Shown here: in pieces, positions 44,340 through 54,966 of the stretch
Layout: the number at the start of each line of letters is the position of its first letter
How positions within the stretch are numbered: the first letter of the stretch is position 1
Assembly (NCBI GenBank): GCA_964571765.1
Contig: CAZNDH010000001.1
Location: 30,773-94,772 of the forward strand
Origin: an uncultured Acidimicrobiaceae bacterium
GTDB taxonomy: Bacteria > Actinomycetota > Acidimicrobiia > Spongiisociales > ZC4RG35
Direction: 5' to 3'
Length of the DNA: 64,000 nt
Position numbers and translations under genes: made by a program
The notes under the pieces: model-generated
Told to the model about the DNA's origin: nothing
The model's input: only the letters and a program-made list of their open reading frames with translations
Databases searched by the model: none

Positions 44340-45091
44340 GCCTGGCGGTCCGGGTGGTGCCCTGTCTCGACATCGACCGGGGAAGGGTGGTCAAGGGGGT
44401 CCGTTTCGCCGGGCTCCGCGACGCCGGCGACCCGGTGGCCTGCGCCACTGCCTACCAGGAGCAAGGAGCCGACGAGGTGGTCCTCCTCGACGTGTCGGCC
44501 ACTCCAGAAGCCCGGGACCACAATCTGGTAACGGTGGAGGAAGTGCGCCAGTCGCTGGCGATCCCGCTCACCGTGGGTGGAGGTGTTCGCTCGGTCGAAG
44601 ACGCTTCCCGCCTGCTCGAGGCCGGCGCCGACAAGGTCGGCGTCAACACCGCGGCGGTGGCCGATCCCGGGCTGATCACCGAGCTCGCCCTGATATTCGG
44701 CGCCCAGTGCACCGTCCTCGCCGTCGACGCTGCAGCCAGTGATGGAGGCTGGAAGGTGGTAGTGAGGAGCGGCTCGGTACACACCGGGCTCGACGTGGTC
44801 GACTGGTGCCGCCGGGGGGAGGCCCTGGGGGCAGGGGAGATCCTCCTCACCAGCTGGGACCGCGACGGGACAGGGGAGGGATACGACCTCTCTCTCCTCG
44901 AGAAGGTCTGTGGGGCTGTTGGCCTTCCGGTGATCGCCTCCGGTGGCGCCAGAGGCTGGCCTCACATGGTCGACGCGGTGGCCGCCGGGGCCTCGGCGGT
45001 CCTGGTTGCCTCGATCCTCCACGACGGGGAGACCACGGTCAGCGCCCTGAAAGAGGGTCTGGCCTCGGCTGGAGTGGCGGTCCGGCCATGA
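44336..45091 (+). CDS. hisF: imidazole glycerol phosphate synthase, cyclase subunit
   Basis: PCLD, VVKG, GAGEILLTSWDRDGT; GTGA overlap with hisH. Confidence 0.95.
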   Translation: MSLAVRVVPCLDIDRGRVVKGVRFAGLRDAGDPVACATAYQEQGADEVVLLDVSATPEARDHNLVTVEEVRQSLAIPLTVGGGVRSVEDASRLLEAGADKVGVNTAAVADPGLITELALIFGAQCTVLAVDAAASDGGWKVVVRSGSVHTGLDVVDWCRRGEALGAGEILLTSWDRDGTGEGYDLSLLEKVCGAVGLPVIASGGARGWPHMVDAVAAGASAVLVASILHDGETTVSALKEGLASAGVAVRP

Positions 45092-46350
45092 TCGTCCCCT
45101 CGATCGACATAGTCGCCGGCCAGGCTGTTCAGCTGGTGGGAGGGGAGGAGGAGGTGGTGGAGGCCGGTGATCCCCGGCCTCTGATGCAACGCTTCTCCCG
45201 GATGGGCGAGGTGGCCGTGGTGGACATCGACGCCGCCCGTGGCGAGGGGGACAACGGTGAAATGATCGCCGCGCTGTGCGCCATGGGGCGGGTCAGGGTG
45301 GGAGGCGGTGTGAGGAACCTGGACAAGGCACGATGGTGGCTCGACGCCGGCGCCGAGAAGGTGGTCATAGGCACTGCGGCCAGGGCGGGATTCCTCTCCG
45401 AGCTACCGCCGGAACGGGTGGTGGTCGCCCTCGATGCCCGTCGAGGTGAGGTGGTCACCCACGGATGGCGAACCTCGACCGGGTTCGGGCTCCTCGAGTC
45501 GATCACCGAGCTCCGTGGCTCGTGCGGAGGCTTCCTGGTGACTTTCGTGGAACGCGAAGGGCGGCTGGCGGGGACCGACATGGACATGGCGCGTCGAGTG
45601 GTCGAGGCGGCCGGGAAAGCCAGCGTCACCATCGCCGGGGGGGTGACCACCCCGGAAGAAGTCGCCGCCCTCGACGCCATCGGCGCCGATGCCCAGGTGG
45701 GGATGGCCCTCTATACCGGGGCCATGGAGCTGGTCGACGCCTTCGCTGCACCACTGCGCAGCGACCGTGGCGACGGGCTGTGGGCCACGGTGGTCACCGA
45801 CCGGTCGGGTAAGGCCCTGGGGCTCGCTTGGTCCGACCGGGAGAGCCTCGCCGAGGTGATCGACACCGGGCGGGGCGTCTACCACAGCAGGTCAAGGGGC
45901 CTCTGGGTCAAAGGCGAGACCTCGGGCAACACCCAGGACGTGGTGGCGGTGGACATCGATTGTGACCGTGACGCCATCCGGGTCACCGTCGACCAGCAGG
46001 GCCCCGGCTTCTGCCATCGGGGCACCCAGAGCTGCTGGGGTGAGGACCGAGGATTGACCCGGCTGGGCCGGCGTCTCGACGAGATCGTGGCAACGAGACC
46101 CGAGGGGTCCAACACCGCCCTACTGGCGTCCGATGCCGAGCTGCTCGGGGCCAAGCTGGTCGAGGAGGCGGGGGAGCTGGCCGCTGCCCACGACGCCAGG
46201 GAGGTCACCGAGGAGGCGGCCGACCTCCTCTACTTCCTGCTCACCCGTCTAGCAGTCGCCGGGGTCGGCCTGGAGCAGGTGGAGGCAGTGCTCGACGCTC
46301 GGGAGAAGCGGATCACCAGGAGACCGATGCAGACCAGGGGATCCCGGTGA
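45088..46350 (+). CDS. HisA-HisI-HisE fusion
   Basis: MIVPSID..GQAVQL, VGGGVR, VIGTAA (HisA); SRSR.LWVKGETSG, DCDRD, CH..TQSC (HisI); KLVEEAGE, EAADLLY (HisE). Confidence 0.88.
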   Translation: MIVPSIDIVAGQAVQLVGGEEEVVEAGDPRPLMQRFSRMGEVAVVDIDAARGEGDNGEMIAALCAMGRVRVGGGVRNLDKARWWLDAGAEKVVIGTAARAGFLSELPPERVVVALDARRGEVVTHGWRTSTGFGLLESITELRGSCGGFLVTFVEREGRLAGTDMDMARRVVEAAGKASVTIAGGVTTPEEVAALDAIGADAQVGMALYTGAMELVDAFAAPLRSDRGDGLWATVVTDRSGKALGLAWSDRESLAEVIDTGRGVYHSRSRGLWVKGETSGNTQDVVAVDIDCDRDAIRVTVDQQGPGFCHRGTQSCWGEDRGLTRLGRRLDEIVATRPEGSNTALLASDAELLGAKLVEEAGELAAAHDAREVTEEAADLLYFLLTRLAVAGVGLEQVEAVLDAREKRITRRPMQTRGSR

Positions 46351-47600
46351 GTCTGCTCAGGCGGGTGGGCCCGGGCGACCCGGTGCTCGAGGTGCGTCGC
46401 AGACCGGTTGAGCCGGACACCTTGGCCGCGGCTGCCTGCATCGTCGAGGAGGTGCGGGCCGGCGGTGAAGTGGCGCTCCGCAGCCTGGCCAGCCGACTCG
46501 ACGAGCTGGCCGACCATGATCCGCTGGTCATCGGGCGCGACGAGCTCGAGGATGCCTTCCACCGGCTCCCAAGGGGTCAGCGCGACCTTCTCGAGAGGGT
46601 GGCGGCCCGGATAGCCGCTTTCGCCCGTGCCCAACTCACCGGACTCTCCGACCTGGAGACCGAGGTGCCCGGGGGTCGGGCGGGGCACCGGTGGCTCCCG
46701 GTGTCGACGGTGGGCGCCTATGCCCCCGGTGGCCGCAATCCGCTCCCTTCGTCGGTGCTGATGACCGTGGTCCCGGCACGGGTCGCCGGTGTCGACGAGG
46801 TTTGGGTTTCCTCACCTCGTCCCACCCGGGTCAGCCTGGGAGCGGCGTGGGTCGCCGGCGCAGACGGCTTGCTCCCGGTGGGCGGGGCGCATGCCATAGC
46901 CTCTCTGGCCTTCGGAACGGTGACACCGGCGGTCGACCTGGTCGTCGGTCCGGGGAACCAATGGGTGACCGCGGCCAAGAAGCACCTGTTCGGGGAGGTC
47001 GGTATCGATGGGTTGGCCGGCCCCAGCGAGATCGCGGTGCTGGCCGATGGCGAGGCCGACCCCTCCCTGGTCGCCGCAGACCTTCTCGCTCAGGCGGAGC
47101 ACGATCCCGATGCGTTCCCCGTCCTGGTCACCGACAGCGCTCTCCTGGCGGATCAGGTCGAGGTGGAGCTCCGCCGGATGCTCGCCGACCTGCCCACCGC
47201 CAAGGTGGCCACCGCCGCTCTCAGCGGTGGGCTGTCGGTGGTGGTGGGTGACATCAGCGAGATGCTCTCGGTGGTGAACCGCCTCGCTCCCGAGCACGTC
47301 GCCCTCCACACATCCGACCCCGACGTCGTTCTCGAGGGAATCACCTCCTACGGCTCGGTCTTCCTCGGGCCGGGCAGCACCGAGGCCTTCGCCGACTACG
47401 GGGCGGGACCCAACCACGTCCTCCCCACCGGCGGCGGAGCCCGGTTCCAGTCGGGGTTATCGGTGCTCACCTTCCTCCGTTCCCCCACCTGGCTCCGCCT
47501 CGACCGGCCCACCGACCTGGTGGCCGACACCGCCCTGCTCGCCCGGCTCGAAGGGCTCGAAGCCCACGCCCGGGCCGCCGAGGCACGACTCGAGAGCTGA
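46347..47600 (+). CDS. hisD: histidinol dehydrogenase
   Basis: YAPGG, GPGN, AGPSE, QAEHD, APEH, DYGAGPNHVLPT. Confidence 0.95.
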   Translation: MSLLRRVGPGDPVLEVRRRPVEPDTLAAAACIVEEVRAGGEVALRSLASRLDELADHDPLVIGRDELEDAFHRLPRGQRDLLERVAARIAAFARAQLTGLSDLETEVPGGRAGHRWLPVSTVGAYAPGGRNPLPSSVLMTVVPARVAGVDEVWVSSPRPTRVSLGAAWVAGADGLLPVGGAHAIASLAFGTVTPAVDLVVGPGNQWVTAAKKHLFGEVGIDGLAGPSEIAVLADGEADPSLVAADLLAQAEHDPDAFPVLVTDSALLADQVEVELRRMLADLPTAKVATAALSGGLSVVVGDISEMLSVVNRLAPEHVALHTSDPDVVLEGITSYGSVFLGPGSTEAFADYGAGPNHVLPTGGGARFQSGLSVLTFLRSPTWLRLDRPTDLVADTALLARLEGLEAHARAAEARLES

Positions 47601-48961: not shown

Positions 48962-49822
48962 TCAATCGAAGGTGTTGCAGCGGGACGGGTCGCCGGTGTC
49001 CCAACCTCGGGTGAACCACTCCACCCGTTGCTCCGAGGACCCATGGGTCCAGGTCTCCGGTCTGACCTGGCCCTGCACCCGCTCCTGGATCCGGTCGTCG
49101 CCGACAGCAGCGGCCGCGTCCATCGCCAGTTGGATCTCACCGGGAAGGAAGATACCGGCATCACGCAGTGTGTTGGCCCAGACCCCGGCAAAGCAGTCGG
49201 CTTGGAGCTCGAGGCGAATCGACAGATCATTGGCTTCGGCCTGGGAGGAAGCCTGTTGGGCACGTTGGACCTCCTCGAGGATCCCGAGACGCTTCTGGAC
49301 GTGGTGACCCACCTCGTGGGCGATCACATAGGCCTCGGCCACGTCTCCACCCTGGGCACCGAACCGGGAGACCAACTCGTCGAAGAAGGTCTCGTCGATG
49401 TAGATGGTCTCGTCGAGGGGGCAGTAGTGGGGGCCGACCCTGGAGTCGGCAGCCCCACAGGCCGAGGTGGCGCCGCCACGAAACAACACCAGCTTGGGCA
49501 GGACGTAGCTCATCCCCCACGATTGGAAGATCGCTTCCCAGGTGTCATCGGTGGAGCCGAGCACGGTGGAGACAAACACCTCGTAGTCGTCTTCACCACG
49601 GAATTCCTCGGGCTGGACGTTGGGCTGCTGTGGCGCCTCGGTCTGCTGGATCTGGTTCATCAGATCGTCGAGACCCGAGCCCCCGCCACCGAGGAAACTG
49701 ATGATCAGGAAGATGATCAGGCCGACACCGCCGAGCCCGCCCACGGCCATGCCAGCCGGGCGCCCCATACCCCGGCGATCTTCGACATTTCCCCGGCGAC
49801 TCAGCCGGTCCCATCGTGCCAT
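48962..49822 (-). CDS. neutral zinc metallopeptidase (YpfJ family)
   Basis: NVEDRRG, GPHYCPLD, AHEVGHHVQ, ELQADC, THGSSEQR. Confidence 0.92.
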   Translation of the reverse strand: MARWDRLSRRGNVEDRRGMGRPAGMAVGGLGGVGLIIFLIISFLGGGGSGLDDLMNQIQQTEAPQQPNVQPEEFRGEDDYEVFVSTVLGSTDDTWEAIFQSWGMSYVLPKLVLFRGGATSACGAADSRVGPHYCPLDETIYIDETFFDELVSRFGAQGGDVAEAYVIAHEVGHHVQKRLGILEEVQRAQQASSQAEANDLSIRLELQADCFAGVWANTLRDAGIFLPGEIQLAMDAAAAVGDDRIQERVQGQVRPETWTHGSSEQRVEWFTRGWDTGDPSRCNTFD

Positions 49823-50026
49823 GTTCTCCTCCAAGACCGGAAGCGTGGAGGCTACTCCCGACTGGAGAGCTATACCCCACTGAACGAGAAACGATGCCCC
49901 CGGTCCCCGGCACATCTCGCCGAGGCCGGTGAGCCCCGGTTGGCACTGGAGCCCGTGGGCCCAGGTCGCGAAAACTTTGGGCGTCCGCGGGTTCTCCCCC
50001 GCTACCTAATGGGGTATGTTTGGCTC

Positions 50027-50162
50027 TGAAGAGCCCGAGGAAGTGGGAACGGGTGCTGGGTGACTTCCCAGCTGAGACAGGGACTGTAGGAGTCCCCGGA
50101 CCGTTCAAACCTGAGACGGTTAACACCGGCGTAGGAATCCCCTTCGTTGGGCTCTTCATTTT
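50027..50162 (+). ncRNA. TPP riboswitch aptamer with extended P1
   Basis: GGGTGC-P3-GCTGAGA, extra stem, ACCTGA..CGGTTAACACCGGCGTAGGA; closed by TGAAGAGCCC/GGGCTCTTCA then TTTT. Confidence 0.82.
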
Positions 50163-50235
50163 CCCTCCCCTCAACCCGCTCCTCTGTCGACCAGGTGACT
50201 GGTGCCGCTCGGGTGATCCGGCGATACTCCCGGCG

Positions 50236-51477
50236 ATGGCCAACCAGGTGACCCGACGAGAGCCAAGGTCGGTGCAACGTAGGCTCACCGGTGTCCTCTT
50301 CGGGGGCGTGGCGCTGGGCTCGACCGCTTACATCGCCGCGGTCACCATCTCCACCCTGGCCATCGACGAGATCACCGGATCGGCAGCCCTCGCCGGAGTG
50401 CCCGGAGCGGCCGCGGTGGTGGGGACCGCCCTGGGGACCACTGCGCTAACCGTTAGCGTCGCCCGGAGAGGCCGTCGACCCGGCATGGTGGCCGGATACA
50501 CACTCGCCGCCCTAGGGGCGGTCACCTGCATCCTCGCGGTAACCGCATCATCCGTAGTCGGTCTCATCGGAGGCATGGCCCTCATCGGCCTGGGTAATGC
50601 CTCCACGCATTTGTCCCGGTATGCCGCGGCCGACATGTACCCCCCGGAGCGAAGGGGCGCCGCCCTGGGCATGGTGGTCTGGGCGGGCACTGTGGGCTCG
50701 GTGGCTGGTCCCGCTCTGCTCCAGCCTTCGGGTCGCCTCGCCGAGTCGTTGGGTCGATCCGAGCTGGTTGGGGCATACCTGGTAGCCCTGGTGTTCCTCC
50801 TCCTGGCCGGGCTCCTCTACTTCGGGGGCCTCCGCCCCGACCCGACTTCCCTGGCCCCGGAGCCGCCGTCCCGGGCCCGGGTGGCATGGCCGGCCCTGGC
50901 CGCCGCCTTTCGCCTCCCCCAGGTGCGGGTGGCACTCTCGGTGATGGTCGCCGGTCAGGTGGTGATGGTGATGATCATGACGGCGACCCCGCTCCACATC
51001 CGCCACCACGGCTCCGACCTGGGCATCGTCGGCCTGGTCATGAGCGCCCACACATTGGGCATGTTCGCCCTCTCCCCGGTCACCGGGCGTCTCGCCGACA
51101 CCTTCGGTCCAATGCGCGTGGCGACGGCGGGAATGGCCGTTCTCGCTGGGTCGGCGGTAGGGGCTGCCGTCGGGCCGATCCATTCCACCGCCGCCCTGGT
51201 CGGGCTGCTCTGGGCCCTCGGGGTCGGCTGGAACATGACCTTCGTGTCGGGAAGCTCGATGCTCTCCGCCGGGATCGACTCCGGAGTCCGCGCCCGCCTC
51301 CAGGGCTCGGTCGACTCCCTCACCTGGATCTCGGGAGCCCTGGCTGCCATCGGTTCCGGCCTCCTCTATCAGTCGCGCGACTACCGGGCCCTCGGCCTGA
51401 TCGGGGTGGCGCTTCTGGTGGCGCCGGTGGTGGTCGTCCTCCACAATCGCCGGCTTCTTGCTGCGGCTGAGACCTGA
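50236..51477 (+). CDS. MFS transporter
   Basis: ~12 TM segments, RRGRRPG, RYAAAD, MVMIMTATP, GRLADTFG. Confidence 0.88.
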   Translation: MANQVTRREPRSVQRRLTGVLFGGVALGSTAYIAAVTISTLAIDEITGSAALAGVPGAAAVVGTALGTTALTVSVARRGRRPGMVAGYTLAALGAVTCILAVTASSVVGLIGGMALIGLGNASTHLSRYAAADMYPPERRGAALGMVVWAGTVGSVAGPALLQPSGRLAESLGRSELVGAYLVALVFLLLAGLLYFGGLRPDPTSLAPEPPSRARVAWPALAAAFRLPQVRVALSVMVAGQVVMVMIMTATPLHIRHHGSDLGIVGLVMSAHTLGMFALSPVTGRLADTFGPMRVATAGMAVLAGSAVGAAVGPIHSTAALVGLLWALGVGWNMTFVSGSSMLSAGIDSGVRARLQGSVDSLTWISGALAAIGSGLLYQSRDYRALGLIGVALLVAPVVVVLHNRRLLAAAET

Positions 51478-51480
51478 ACT

Positions 51481-52536
51481 TCAACCCAAATGACGTCCGG
51501 CGGGCTCGACCCCGATCTCGGTGGCCTTCAAGCCCAGCCAGATCTCGCTGCCCGGCTCGACCCCTAGCTCCTCAGCAGCCGCCCTGGTTATTTCCACGGT
51601 AAGGGGGAGGGGGCGACCGGTCTGGAGCCGGAGTCGGTCGCCGATCGGCTCGAGACGCTCCACCAGCGTAACCCACTGATTGCGGGTGCTCCCCGAAGGG
51701 CGGTCGAGGTGCACCGAAGGTGCACTGGTGGGGATCGTGACCACTACCGGCCCCTCCAGGTCGCGGTCGGCGAGGTGGACCAAGTGGCCGTCGAGTTCGA
51801 CCCGGCCGCCGCCGGCGACGCCGGAGAACAGGTTGACCCCGGCGAGGGCGGCGGCGTAACCGGTCCGGGGCTTGAGCCTCAGGTCGTCGGGGGTGCCACT
51901 CTGGGTGATCCGCCCCTCCTCGAGCACATGGATGCGGTCGCCGAGGAGCAGCGTCTCCTGAGAGTCGTGGGTGACGAAGAGCACCGGGACCTCCCACCGG
52001 GCGACGATGTCCTTGACCAGGATGCGCAGCCGGTGGCGTACCGGGAGGTCGAGGGCGCTGAAGGGCTCGTCGAGGAGCAGCATCCGGGGATCACCGGCCA
52101 ACGCCCTGGCAAGGGCAACCCGCTGCATCTGGCCACCTGAAACCTGGCCAGGGCGGCGTTCCGCCAGATCCGCCGCTCCCACCTCGCCGAGCCAGCCGGC
52201 GGCCGTTTCCCTGCGGTGGGCACGCGAGCCCTCCCGGACTGCCAGCGCCACATTGTCGAGCATGGTGCGATGGGGTAACAGCAGGGAGTCCTGAAAGACC
52301 ACGCCGACCCACCGATCCTGGGGACTGACGTGGACACCCGCGGAGGTATCGACCAGGGTGACGCCGTCGATGGCCACCCGTCCGCGGTCGGGACGATCTA
52401 TACCCGAGATCATTCGGAGGGTCATGCTCTTGCCCGCCCCGGACGGGCCCACCAGCACTGTGATCCCCGAATCGCATACGAAGCGGGCGTCGAGCTCGAA
52501 CCCGCCCACCGAGTGGCCCAGCTCGACGGTGAGCAT
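51481..52536 (-). CDS. modC: molybdate ABC transporter ATP-binding protein with TOBE domain
   Basis: GPSGAGKS, SGGQMQR, LLLDEP, C-terminal TOBE ending KATE. Confidence 0.88.
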   Translation of the reverse strand: MLTVELGHSVGGFELDARFVCDSGITVLVGPSGAGKSMTLRMISGIDRPDRGRVAIDGVTLVDTSAGVHVSPQDRWVGVVFQDSLLLPHRTMLDNVALAVREGSRAHRRETAAGWLGEVGAADLAERRPGQVSGGQMQRVALARALAGDPRMLLLDEPFSALDLPVRHRLRILVKDIVARWEVPVLFVTHDSQETLLLGDRIHVLEEGRITQSGTPDDLRLKPRTGYAAALAGVNLFSGVAGGGRVELDGHLVHLADRDLEGPVVVTIPTSAPSVHLDRPSGSTRNQWVTLVERLEPIGDRLRLQTGRPLPLTVEITRAAAEELGVEPGSEIWLGLKATEIGVEPAGRHLG

Positions 52537-53189
52537 CAGGAGATCCGTTCCAGTCTTCGAACCACGAGGAGGATGGTCACCGCCACCACCACCAGGACCA
52601 GCGACAACCTCCCGGCGCGGTCGTAGTCGAAGGCTTGGACCGCGTCATACACCGCTACCGGCATGGTCTGGGTGCGGCCCGGAATGTTGCCGGCAACCAT
52701 CACCGTGGCCCCGAAGTCGCCCAACGCCCGAGCGAATGACAGGGCCACTCCGGCAAGCAGGCCCCTCCTCGCCAAGGGCAGGGTGATCTTGGCGGCCACC
52801 CGCCAGTCGGCGAGCCCCATCACCCTCCCCACGTCTTCGAACCGCCGGTCGACCGACTCGATGGCGGCCCGGGCGGCGCGCAGGCAGAAGGGGAAGGAGG
52901 CCACCGCCGCAGCCAGCACCGCTCCCTGCCAGGTGAACACAAGTGGTGCTCCGAACACCGACTCCCAGACCTGGCCGATCGGGCTCCTCCTCCCCACCAT
53001 GACCAGGAGGTAATAGCCGAGGACCGTAGGAGGCATCACGATTGGGACGGTGGCGATCGCCTCGAGGAGTCCGCGACCACGAAACCGCCTGCGCGCCAGC
53101 AGGTAGCCGAACCCGATTCCTCCGACGGCCACCAACAAAGTGGCGATGATGCTCACCCGGAGCGATAGCCAGAGCGGATCCCAGATCAT
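52536..53189 (-). CDS. modB: molybdate ABC transporter permease
   Basis: PPTVLGYYLL, FARALGDFGAT, GNIPGRTQTMP. Confidence 0.93.
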   Translation of the reverse strand: MIWDPLWLSLRVSIIATLLVAVGGIGFGYLLARRRFRGRGLLEAIATVPIVMPPTVLGYYLLVMVGRRSPIGQVWESVFGAPLVFTWQGAVLAAAVASFPFCLRAARAAIESVDRRFEDVGRVMGLADWRVAAKITLPLARRGLLAGVALSFARALGDFGATVMVAGNIPGRTQTMPVAVYDAVQAFDYDRAGRLSLVLVVVAVTILLVVRRLERIS

Positions 53190-53983
53190 CCGCCCACTTC
53201 CCCGGGGAGCACGAACCCATAGCGGTTCATCACCTCCCGTCCGCGAGGGCTGCCCACCAGCTCGACGAATTCGACCGCGGCTCCCACTCGGGCGGGGTCT
53301 TCGACGGTCACCACCAGTGCTTGCTCCAGGGGGTTGTGGAGCCCGTCGTCGATCAACTCCCAGGACCCCCGCTCGCCGGCGGCCATCGCCAGGGAGAGGG
53401 CGACAATGGCGACGTCGGCGTCACCGTTCTCCGCCAGCCGCTGGGTGTCGGAGATGTTCTCTCCGAAGACGAGCCTTGCTTCGAGCGTGTCCCAGTTCCC
53501 CGATTCGAGGAGGGCCTCCTTGGCAGCCAACCCGTAAGGCGCGTGCTGGGGATTGGCGATGGCCACGAACCTCACCCCCTGGTCGGAGCCAAGTGCATCG
53601 AGGTCAGTCCACCCATGCCAGAGATCGGTCCGGGCCCAGATGACGATCCGGCCATAGGCGTAGGTTGTCTTCGTCGATGGGTCACCCCGGCCCGAGGCAA
53701 GGACCCGATCGACGAAGTCGAGGTTGGCCGAGGCATAGACATCGACTGGTGCACCTTCGATGATTCGCTGAGCCAACTGGCCAGAAGACCCGAAGTCGAA
53801 GACGACCTCGTGGTCGGTCGTCTCGGTGAAAACCTCACCCAACTCTTCGAAGGCCGGGCGTAGATCGGAAGCGGCCGCCACCAGCAGGGCCTGATCGCCC
53901 ATCAACGGCCCGGAAGCAGGCTGAGAGTCCCGGCACCCGGCCAGGGCCAGACAAACCAGAAACACCACAGAGCCCGATCTCAC
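53186..53983 (-). CDS. modA: molybdate ABC transporter substrate-binding lipoprotein
   Basis: Lipobox LAGC, AAASDL, GSSGQL, APYG, GENI. Confidence 0.92.
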   Translation of the reverse strand: MRSGSVVFLVCLALAGCRDSQPASGPLMGDQALLVAAASDLRPAFEELGEVFTETTDHEVVFDFGSSGQLAQRIIEGAPVDVYASANLDFVDRVLASGRGDPSTKTTYAYGRIVIWARTDLWHGWTDLDALGSDQGVRFVAIANPQHAPYGLAAKEALLESGNWDTLEARLVFGENISDTQRLAENGDADVAIVALSLAMAAGERGSWELIDDGLHNPLEQALVVTVEDPARVGAAVEFVELVGSPRGREVMNRYGFVLPGEVGG

Positions 53984-54966
53984 CCCGTGCTGCTCCCCAG
54001 TTCTTCGAGGTGATACCCGCCGATCTGCTCCAGTCGCCGGCGGAACGCCTCGCCGGTGACCGCCGTCAACATCGCCTCGACACCACGCTCACCGAGCCAA
54101 CGATCATCGACCCAGAGTTCGACCCGATGATGTGCCAGTGGATGGAAGGCGACACCGAGGGCAGCCGACACCGGCTCGATGGTGAGTGCCGGAATGCCGG
54201 CACAGATCCCGTGACGCCCCGCAGATAGGTGTCCCCCCGCTCTCGGTCCAGGCACTTCGCCACCCACTGCCTCGAGGAACGACTGTTGAGCAGCTGCCGA
54301 AGGCTCCCGCTGCACCACCGGAATGCCTCCCGAGACGACCAGGTCCCACCACCCGGAAGTCATGCCGGGAGGCAGGGCCAGGCCGACGCTCCACCCCGTC
54401 AAGCCGAAACGGACGAGACCCGGCGGTGCATCTGGGACCTCCCCCTCGGGGGCGTGAACGACCGCAGCATGGGCCCTGCCTTGGGTCATCGCGTTCACTG
54501 CCGAGGCGGAGGAAGCGACCACGGCCATCGCCCCGATGCCCTCCTGGCGGAGCATCGACTCCAGGGTTTCCAGCCCGGGCTCACACCCCGCCACCACCAC
54601 GCTGGGTCGGCTGATTCCTGACCCGACCACCCGGCCGGACTCTATGGCCCCGTCGGCCGGGCCCCAACCCTCTCCACCGGTGAGGGGCGGCGACGTCACC
54701 ACCTGAACACCGATCATCCCGACCCGTACCGCCTCACCCTCGCCGGGAGGTCCACCGGTGAGCACGTCGACCGGCGAGGTATCCGAAGCGAAAAGTGACT
54801 CGGGGCTGACCCCGAGCGCCCGGGAGAGGGCCAGTGCGGCATCGACCCGGGGAAGGTGACGACCGCTTTCGACTGCACCCACCAACTGCCTACTGACCCC
54901 GGCCAACCCGGCCAGCTCCGCCTGGGTCAACCCGGCTTGCTCCCTAGCAGTCCTCAGTCGACTCAT
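53980..54966 (-). CDS. XRE-HTH regulator with PBP-like molybdate-binding domain
   Basis: GLTQAELAGLAGVSRQ HTH; AGCEP and QRE...A segments; first gene of the mod operon. Confidence 0.75.
   Translation of the reverse strand: MSRLRTAREQAGLTQAELAGLAGVSRQLVGAVESGRHLPRVDAALALSRALGVSPESLFASDTSPVDVLTGGPPGEGEAVRVGMIGVQVVTSPPLTGGEGWGPADGAIESGRVVGSGISRPSVVVAGCEPGLETLESMLRQEGIGAMAVVASSASAVNAMTQGRAHAAVVHAPEGEVPDAPPGLVRFGLTGWSVGLALPPGMTSGWWDLVVSGGIPVVQREPSAAAQQSFLEAVGGEVPGPRAGGHLSAGRHGICAGIPALTIEPVSAALGVAFHPLAHHRVELWVDDRWLGERGVEAMLTAVTGEAFRRRLEQIGGYHLEELGSSTG

Follow-up and report, generated by a model that had tools for sequence, protein, structure and literature searches.

Does an aptamer that is shut inside a long helix, and followed at once by a run of T, still switch the gene behind it, or has it become an RNA gene in its own right? 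The question is raised by a locus in a 64,000-nucleotide stretch of DNA from an uncultured Acidimicrobiaceae bacterium (assembly GCA_964571765.1, contig CAZNDH010000001.1, positions 30,773 to 94,772; hereafter the window, whose own numbering is used throughout), where a thiamine pyrophosphate (TPP) aptamer stands upstream of a gene for a major facilitator superfamily (MFS) transporter. By definition, riboswitches are leaders that act in cis, and for a new class the downstream gene usually provides the guess at the ligand. A preliminary description of the window had left two answers side by side: either the P1 stem is itself the terminator that controls a thiamine-related MFS gene, or the element is an independent RNA of ~135 nt, binding TPP or a variant ligand.

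Comparing the locus with its counterparts in related genomes, we found that the data favour an independent RNA as the best reading and make a dedicated switch of the MFS gene less likely. The element is probably, if by no means certainly, a free-standing TPP-aptamer RNA gene of ~135 nt, the closing helix of which doubles as a terminator. It probably does something other than switching a thiamine gene, because dozens of related bacteria carry the same unit beside unrelated genes. The features that carry this reading, namely the aptamer, a covarying helix, a T-run, a -10-like hexamer at a conserved offset and the absence of a tie to thiamine genes or to a fixed neighbour, were all computed from the window and its relatives.

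An aptamer closed by a terminator-like helix

The TPP (THI-box) aptamer occupies positions 50039-50154 of the forward strand and matches the whole RF00059 model (1-105) at 59.9 bits (gathering cut-off 54.3; E 3.1e-09), in agreement with the core motifs that had been noticed by eye. It is one of two Rfam matches across the 64-kb window and the single TPP match of the entire assembly, a 90% complete, 2.17-Mb metagenome-assembled genome (MAG) of 79 contigs. When aligned with the consensus of the model, the sequence showed P1-P5, with CUGAGA in J3/2 and ACCUGA...GCGUAGG in the P4/P5 pyrophosphate-sensor arm, motifs which we take, from published TPP structures, to be those that contact the ligand, and additionally a P3a hairpin with AGGAG in its loop. 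The P4/J4-5 region reads CCUGAGACGG, which contains the unusual TGAGA pointed out in the preliminary description. This variant is no mark of another ligand, because two conventional riboswitches of the genus (in G002 and G005), ordinary switches of thiamine transporter genes, share CCUGAGACGG; with the core motifs canonical as well, we rejected a variant-ligand reading of the window copy. Diverged copies in other genera may still answer to a variant ligand.

The aptamer is enclosed by an extended P1. Its 5' strand (50027-50048) pairs with a 3' strand (50138-50158) that would serve as the terminator stem as well, and minimum-free-energy folds give a closing helix of 19 pairs interrupted by a single G-G mismatch and a single bulged U, close to the ~20 bp first proposed. 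The segment 50022-50170 folds at -68.9 kcal/mol (z = -3.59), none of 200 shuffles being equally stable, and the helix contributes about -28 kcal/mol (-66.1 for the full fold vs -38.4 without the 3' strand). Directly after the helix comes a TTTT run (UUUU in RNA; 50159-50162), as originally noted, which is the predicted 3' end of the RNA; an intrinsic terminator after the aptamer is thus present in fused form, as closing helix plus UUUU. On the other side, the -10-like hexamer TATGTT (50015-50020), also rightly recognized from the start, ends 6 nt ahead of the first helix base, so that transcription is predicted to start at the base of the helix, at ~50027/50028. All these features lie on the forward strand. 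The open reading frame (ORF) spanning the element shows no conservation.

With a start at the helix base, nothing upstream could compete with the helix. Moreover, when ten elements were folded without their 3' strand or under constraint, no conserved alternative pairing that could act as an antiterminator appeared: all that the ten truncated folds held were small hairpins within the 5' strand, unconserved and of 4-10 kcal/mol (~4 in the window element). The earlier statement that no separate expression platform accompanies the aptamer is borne out by the position of the predicted start and by these folds.

A generic promoter and terminator scan of 49600-50500 called no promoter and one unrelated terminator-like hairpin at 49997-50014; it is blind to a terminator of the present kind because it demands a loop of 3-8 nt, and here the loop is the whole aptamer. 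The hairpin that it called, CCCCGCUACCUAAUGGGG, stands immediately 5' of TATGTT and overlaps the would-be -35 position. Downstream of the T-run lies a pyrimidine-rich, G-poor tract, CCCUCCCCUC... (50163-50192, forward strand; of the 30 nt after the helix 25 are pyrimidines and 2 are G), which upon read-through could act as a tail resembling a rut site or an anti-Shine-Dalgarno sequence. As a class-wide feature this tail was rejected, a content of 70% pyrimidine being reached in 23 of 55 related elements only.

Two kinds of TPP element among relatives

TPP matches were collected from 60 relatives and their flanks compared, and they fell into two kinds. In the conventional kind, a short P1 leads into a platform of the form ...GCUCCCG..AAGGAG..AUG that sequesters the Shine-Dalgarno (SD) sequence, and the element sits 10-37 nt before an ORF of ~345 aa of lipoprotein type (L110, L111, L112, L113, L115, L116 and L117); the three such ORFs tested (L110, L115 and L116) are TIGR01254 thiamine ATP-binding cassette (ABC) substrate-binding proteins. 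The long-helix kind, to which the window element belongs, is found within the genus in G005, G007 and G008, with a degraded version in G001 (5' half, 41 bits). Here, the aptamer is framed by GAAGA(G/A)CCCGA...UCGGG(C/U)UCUUC; behind the helix comes a T-run, ahead of it, at a fixed distance, a -10-like hexamer, and the next gene encodes an S9 peptidase, a class-V aminotransferase or, in convergent orientation, an MFS protein. That the same genus also holds conventional TPP riboswitches before thiamine ABC binding proteins argues for the long-helix elements being a separate kind.

To delimit this kind, genomes were searched in two ways. An exact-pattern search returned TPP-bearing matches in 16 of 201 family genomes, three more among 401 genomes of the order and none in 277 genomes of other families; pattern matches in G109, G168, G288, G402, G107 and G202 were dropped as chance hits without a TPP aptamer. 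A covariance model (R1), built from 15 sequences (alignment A2) and run on 151 family genomes, gave at least 55 full-length matches (model positions 1-137) at 64.7 bits or more among the matches listed, and 64 weaker ones besides, whereas conventional riboswitches match it only locally, over positions ~20-110. In a class-wide sample of 151 genomes, seven had a match at E <= 1e-14, all within the order of the window: five belonged to its family and one to each of two sister families, and the 114 genomes of more distant families in that sample had none.

The set examined below comprises 55 elements from 48 genomes, which represent 17 genera within a single family of the Acidimicrobiia. It omits two genomes marked as unpublished; the unpublished genomes G039, G050, G177 and G179 enter the search tallies and carry none of the conclusions. 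Seven genomes contributed two copies each, and up to four matches were listed in some genomes.

Conserved anatomy of the long-helix elements

Covariation of the extended P1 among relatives, which the preliminary description had proposed as a check, was evaluated on a model-guided alignment of 55 distinct rows fitted to the structure (A3), including one reverse-strand row, L163 (29.5 bits), that adds slight noise. In this alignment, pairing holds in 95.9% of the cells and both partners vary in 35 of 39 pairs, measures none of which was reached in any of 500 shuffles, and sliding the 3' partner by one column lowers the pairing to 46-48%. The check succeeds most clearly in the lower closing helix, where 10 of the 11 pairs carry compensatory changes and 99.0% of cells are paired. 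Judged by this pattern of substitution, the closing helix is real.

Its surroundings are equally regular. The closing stem has a median of 18 pairs (range 11-19); the 8 nt that follow it hold at least four T in 44 of the 55 elements and at least three in 51, and in 35 a strict TANNNT is placed at -13/-14 relative to the first paired base, the elements without it having mostly near-variants such as CATGGT or CAAGGT. The conservation of this unit across 17 genera, in its promoter offset, its compensatory helix and its T-run, points to purifying selection rather than decay.

Upstream of the -10 hexamer, at ~20-50 nt, the long-helix elements show two group-specific conserved motifs. The first is an imperfect palindrome, AGGGACyTTyGGCCCTAGAC, that overlaps the -35 position; the second, found in other genera, consists of TTTCGCG and, about 10 nt later, TTCGC, and reads as a direct repeat. 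Examples are L161-L163, L170 and L171, and L174, L176-L178, L181-L190 and L213, and the window copy matches weakly. Both motifs look like binding sites of regulators.

Inside the aptamer, AGGAG recurs in the otherwise variable P3a region of 40 of the 55 elements (~50078-50097 in the window). The loop keeps (A/G)UAGGAG, a motif that resembles a Shine-Dalgarno sequence and is not retained by the genus's conventional riboswitches.

The ligand-binding core is less uniform. The RF00059 cut-off is reached by 14 of the 55 elements, the window copy included, so that some copies may no longer bind TPP. In diverged copies of one genus (L181, L186, L189, L190, L198, L201 and L202), AUAAGA, CUAAGA or GGGAGA replaces CUGAGA and/or a UUCG-type tetraloop takes the place of L5; taking the roles of the changed residues to be those seen in TPP riboswitch crystal structures, we consider that these seven have probably lost TPP binding. 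In some others the CCUGA/UAGG portion of P4 is missing. All of these diverged copies retain promoter, helix and T-run.

A few copies stand in unusual surroundings. L198 and L201 have a second, canonical terminator hairpin ~10 nt further on. A divergent tRNA gene lies 130-200 nt upstream of L194, L197 and L199 (second copies in three genomes of one genus) and of L170, with a phage-type integrase at one of these loci and an AbiEii-like gene at another, and VapBC pairs flank L198, L201 and L189. Such surroundings could hint at rearrangement hot spots.

Gene neighbourhoods

In a cis-acting riboswitch class, nearly all downstream genes would lie on the same strand and be coherent in function. Among the 55 long-helix elements, for which ORFs were called by a GC-frame filter and named by Pfam, 33 have their first downstream ORF on the same strand, 21 have it in convergent orientation and one lacks it at a contig end; the upstream ORF is on the same strand at 27 and divergent at 28. 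When downstream genes are restricted to those that Pfam supports, the same-strand and convergent numbers are 25 and 13. None of the 33 same-strand loci (25 with Pfam support), nor any of the 55 altogether, has an identified thiamine gene directly downstream. An NMT1/THI5-like gene lies convergent ~500 nt from one element (in G218), with an unnamed ORF between.

The functions of these neighbours are diverse. On the same strand, Pfam supports MFS, aminotransferase V, S9 peptidase, sigma-70 (2), GreA (3), Usp, HAD/trehalose phosphatase, guanylate cyclase, HD-GerE, DEAD helicase, metallo-beta-lactamase (MBL) fold (4), PadR, mechanosensitive (MS) channel, ABC binding protein, hydrolase, M15 peptidase, octopine-DH-like, DUF302 and MiaB-like proteins. 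The convergent neighbours comprise MFS, P-type ATPases (2), amino-acid permease, Na/Ca exchanger, PEPCK, glyoxalase, DHO-dh-like, M50 peptidase, GFO/IDH, TetR, DM13 and CsbD. Across the 48 genomes and 17 genera, the unit is thus kept in many gene contexts, independently of the neighbouring genes.

The MFS gene and the thiamine supply of the organism

At the window locus itself, the downstream gene is on the same strand and encodes an MFS_1 transporter of 413 aa (50236-51477, forward strand; PF07690, E 4.8e-27), beginning 73 nt past the T-run; the ATG at 50236 is supported as its start by homologues that align from residues 1-14 onward. NCBIfam gives weak generic MFS matches and no thiamine-related name. 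The divergent gene on the other side (48962-49915, reverse strand) encodes a putative neutral zinc metallopeptidase (PF04228, E 1e-97). No thiamine gene lies within ~5 kb of the element, as had been stated of its vicinity, and judged as a cis-regulatory thiamine leader the window element does not stand 5' of an identified thiamine biosynthesis or transport gene.

The preliminary description had also assigned a -10-like element of its own to the MFS gene, and GATACT is indeed found at 50223-50228 of the forward strand, 7 nt before the ATG, as in a leaderless-type promoter. MFS matches at E <= 1e-30 occur in 8 of 11 other genomes of the genus; seven of them are orthologues (61-79% identity) and the eighth, in G002 at 31% identity, is probably a paralogue. 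The TPP element is absent in all six in-genus orthologues with readable upstream DNA, and five of these (L101-L105) carry CGATACT 6-7 nt before the ATG or GTG, as in the window. The window gene (50220-50238) and L101-L105 show no Shine-Dalgarno sequence, and CGATACT looks like a conserved promoter for a leaderless mRNA.

The wider family gives the same picture. MFS relatives in public genomes (n = 67) come from Acidimicrobiia MAGs (61-69% identity) and Chloroflexota MAGs, a distribution that puts the window within the class Acidimicrobiia. A regular expression for the TPP core motifs, which recovers the window aptamer and most of the fetched TPP loci as a positive control, found no match in the 500 nt upstream of the gene at the 64 of 67 loci that have upstream DNA, and RF00059, run on the closest 20 of the 67, found none either. 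The CGATACT promoter is seen at 7 of these 64 loci, and many others have different -10-like hexamers at the start, such as CAAACT, TACACT or TATCAT. As far as sequence comparison can tell, the MFS gene has its own leaderless-type promoter and its family is not TPP-regulated, because the homologues searched lack the element and the orthologues keep the start-proximal CGATACT. The MFS gene is a neighbour of the RNA and probably not its target. A tblastn search with the zinc peptidase and an ABC ATPase of the window against the seven in-genus MFS loci returned one partial match (L105) and did not demonstrate an insertion of the element into a conserved neighbourhood.

The thiamine genes of the assembly bear on the same question. 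ThiC, ThiE and a thiamine ABC binding protein were not found above cut-off in the 90% complete assembly, and thiamine pyrophosphokinase (TPK) is present (L211, C3:85551-85826). The organism would therefore need a thiamine importer; it looks like a thiamine auxotroph for which no importer has been identified, with 10% of the genome missing.

Two other gene groups of the window deserve mention. Convergent with the MFS gene, positions 51481-54966 of the reverse strand hold a TOBE-domain ABC ATPase, a permease and an SBP_bac_11 binding protein, a molybdate- or sulfate-type uptake operon that adjoins a regulator with helix-turn-helix (HTH) and periplasmic-binding-protein-like (PBP-like) parts. Further upstream on the forward strand, a 514-aa ORF (44806-46350) joins His_biosynth (HisA/HisF-type), PRA-CH and PRA-PH domains in an unusual triple fusion of the histidine pathway, with histidinol dehydrogenase (46347-47600) next after it.

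Proposed mechanism and competing explanations

How might such an RNA work? In the mechanism that we propose, the TATGTT promoter would start transcription at the base of the 19-pair helix that encloses the intact TPP aptamer, and the 3' strand of the helix with the U-run would form an intrinsic terminator, yielding an RNA of ~132-136 nt from ~50027 to ~50162. The helix appears stable enough to form with or without ligand, so that termination, with no antiterminator competing, would probably be largely constitutive, and the closing helix would keep the aptamer folded and ready for its ligand. Once made, the RNA would bind TPP and exert its effect elsewhere than on the adjacent gene, as a TPP-responsive regulator or as a protein- or RNA-binding partner, possibly using the AGGAG loop of P3a as a contact surface for its action in trans, and the MFS gene would be transcribed from its own promoter at its start codon. 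The features expected of a small RNA (sRNA) gene, its own promoter and a Rho-independent terminator around a non-coding unit of 50-300 nt, are present here by prediction only. The transcript ends, the binding of TPP, the constitutive termination and the function in trans are what we infer from these features. Of the two answers contained in the preliminary description, the independent RNA of ~135 nt is thus favoured by the comparative data.

Several points weigh against this reading. The promoter, the 3' end and the expression of the ~135-nt RNA are predictions. No RNA run was found to contain 49850-50450, and the four runs that contain parts of it are stored as contigs, in which RNA ends do not show. 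The generic scan calls no sigma-70-type site at the element, and the -35 region (TTCTCC) is weak. With a U-run this short (four U, then CCC), the polymerase might stop only part of the time. Because the alignment used for covariation had been fitted to the structure of the model, it favours pairing, and it is the raw sequences that plainly display a lower helix differing between genera with its complementarity kept. The ORF calls in relatives are heuristic, with 16 of 54 downstream ORFs lacking Pfam support, one of these 16 unscanned. In several lineages, an SD-led gene begins 14-60 nt from the T-run (MBL-fold in four genomes of one genus, GreA in three and Usp in one), which control by read-through would fit. 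Furthermore, the MFS gene stands beside the only TPP aptamer of its genome and is a candidate thiamine importer.

Some of these points would fit a compact OFF-switch in which P1 is the terminator, an explanation that we regard as unlikely, and yet as the most serious competitor. TPP would fold the aptamer in time for the helix to close and the polymerase to stop; without TPP the nascent aptamer would misfold, closure would come late and read-through would follow, at this locus into the MFS gene as a leadered mRNA running across its own promoter, and elsewhere into sense genes or as antisense RNA against convergent genes. The MFS protein would here import thiamine or a precursor of it. The conserved, terminator-shaped helix and T-run suit such a switch, as do the same-strand position of the MFS gene 73 nt after the T-run, the expectation of an importer raised by an assembly with TPK and without ThiC, ThiE or a ThiB-type binding protein, and the SD-led genes right after the T-run in some relatives. 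Membrane transporters make up 5 of the 13 Pfam-backed convergent neighbours, and the SAM-I element of C. acetobutylicum, described in a survey of riboswitch mechanisms (PMC2258182), is an earlier case of antisense control gated by a riboswitch. Against it, a helix of ~28 kcal/mol with no conserved competitor leaves only a purely kinetic dependence on the ligand. In addition, the MFS orthologues and the 20 nearest homologues lack the TPP element, the gene keeps its start-proximal promoter and bears no thiamine-related NCBIfam name, no thiamine-related gene was identified at the 33 same-strand loci, and 21 of 54 downstream ORFs are convergent. The proposal of a terminator formed by P1 itself thus stands in the part that concerns helix and T-run and loses the part that concerns the MFS gene, given the element-free homologues and orthologues and the unit's place beside unrelated genes elsewhere.

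A second explanation would make the element a structural RNA derived from a riboswitch, in which ligand sensing is secondary or lost and the long helix and the AGGAG loop of P3a form a scaffold for binding protein or RNA. It draws on the minority of elements (14 of 55) at the RF00059 cut-off, on the diverged J3/2, L5 or P4 copies that keep helix, promoter and T-run, on the persistence of AGGAG in 40 of 55 otherwise variable P3a regions, and on the two to four copies of some genomes. However, the window copy and 13 others score above the cut-off, the core motifs of the window copy are intact, and low Rfam scores may reflect lineage-specific and still functional substitutions. We therefore hold it improbable as a general account, one that suits the diverged copies better than the window copy.

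Finally, a decaying relic (a riboswitch orphaned by rearrangement) or a small mobile cassette bounded by the inverted repeat of the helix, without present function, is very improbable: positions that differ between congeners, the degraded 5' half in G001 (41 bits) and the copies beside tRNA, integrase and toxin-antitoxin genes would fit it, but promoter offset, compensatory pairing and T-run are kept across 17 genera, no target-site duplication or transposase was seen, and most genomes have one to few copies.

A wider proposal can be put forward tentatively, one that we doubt slightly more than we believe: within a single Acidimicrobiia family and, in a handful of instances, its sister families, the TPP aptamer would have been turned into free-standing sRNA genes, often in several copies per genome, each with its own conserved and possibly regulated promoter and with a closing helix that doubles as the terminator. 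These RNAs would sense the vitamin B1 status and act in trans outside thiamine metabolism, for instance by way of the AGGAG loop, some having drifted to another ligand or to none.

Comparison with known systems

A TPP aptamer conserved as its own gene, in at least 55 examples from 17 genera, would break the rule that riboswitches are cis-leaders. Were TPP binding and trans action to hold, metabolite sensing would feed into global regulation without any expression platform, and a trans-acting sRNA family of this kind would be the first known riboswitch class that exists mainly as an independent RNA gene. A natural aptamer held folded by a long helix would also be useful for studies of riboswitch folding and for sensor design, and the diverged copies offer a natural series on the re-use of an aptamer after ligand loss. 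On the practical side, automatic annotation would label these loci "TPP riboswitch" and could misassign thiamine functions to their neighbours, the MFS gene for instance. In the literature covered, outside of which subscription journals fall, we found no report of free-standing TPP aptamer RNAs or of such riboswitches in Acidimicrobiia. The accessible part of the mechanism survey cited above (PMC2258182) describes aptamer-embedded ribosome-binding sites, dual platforms and an antisense case, and in that part there is no mention of a P1 that acts as terminator or of a stand-alone class.

With the conventional RF00059 TPP riboswitch, the window element shares the aptamer fold, the core motifs and, in two copies, CCUGAGACGG. 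In the conventional copies P1 is short, and a platform that sequesters the SD sequence lies 10-37 nt ahead of a thiamine transporter gene, whereas the window element has a 19-pair helix that extends from the predicted +1 to the T-run and no platform, and no downstream thiamine gene was identified for it or at its 54 relatives.

The HMP-PP (thiS motif) riboswitch has an aptamer that overlaps a terminator stem, and is a tiny hairpin working as a cis switch before thiamine genes. It resembles the window element in that ligand fold and terminator share a helix and no separate platform exists; unlike it, the window element contains a full three-way-junction TPP aptamer and has no link to thiamine genes.

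Closer in organization are the riboswitches that double as sRNAs. Riboswitch transcripts acting as small RNAs include SreA and SreB, with an S-adenosylmethionine (SAM) aptamer, in Listeria, and Rli55/EutX, with an adenosylcobalamin (AdoCbl) aptamer; most such RNAs still lie in the leader of a cognate gene or have an established partner. An aptamer is also reported inside a small RNA in the SAM-I sRNA of Desulfovibrio vulgaris (10.1101/803072), and the Vc2 c-di-GMP riboswitch is placed at the 3' end of an sRNA (10.1101/617340). Like SreA/SreB, Rli55/EutX, the SAM-I sRNA and Vc2, the window element carries a metabolite aptamer in a discrete RNA whose role would not be confined to cis. It differs from all of them in its ligand class, TPP, and in that the aptamer and its closing helix make up the whole of the predicted RNA.

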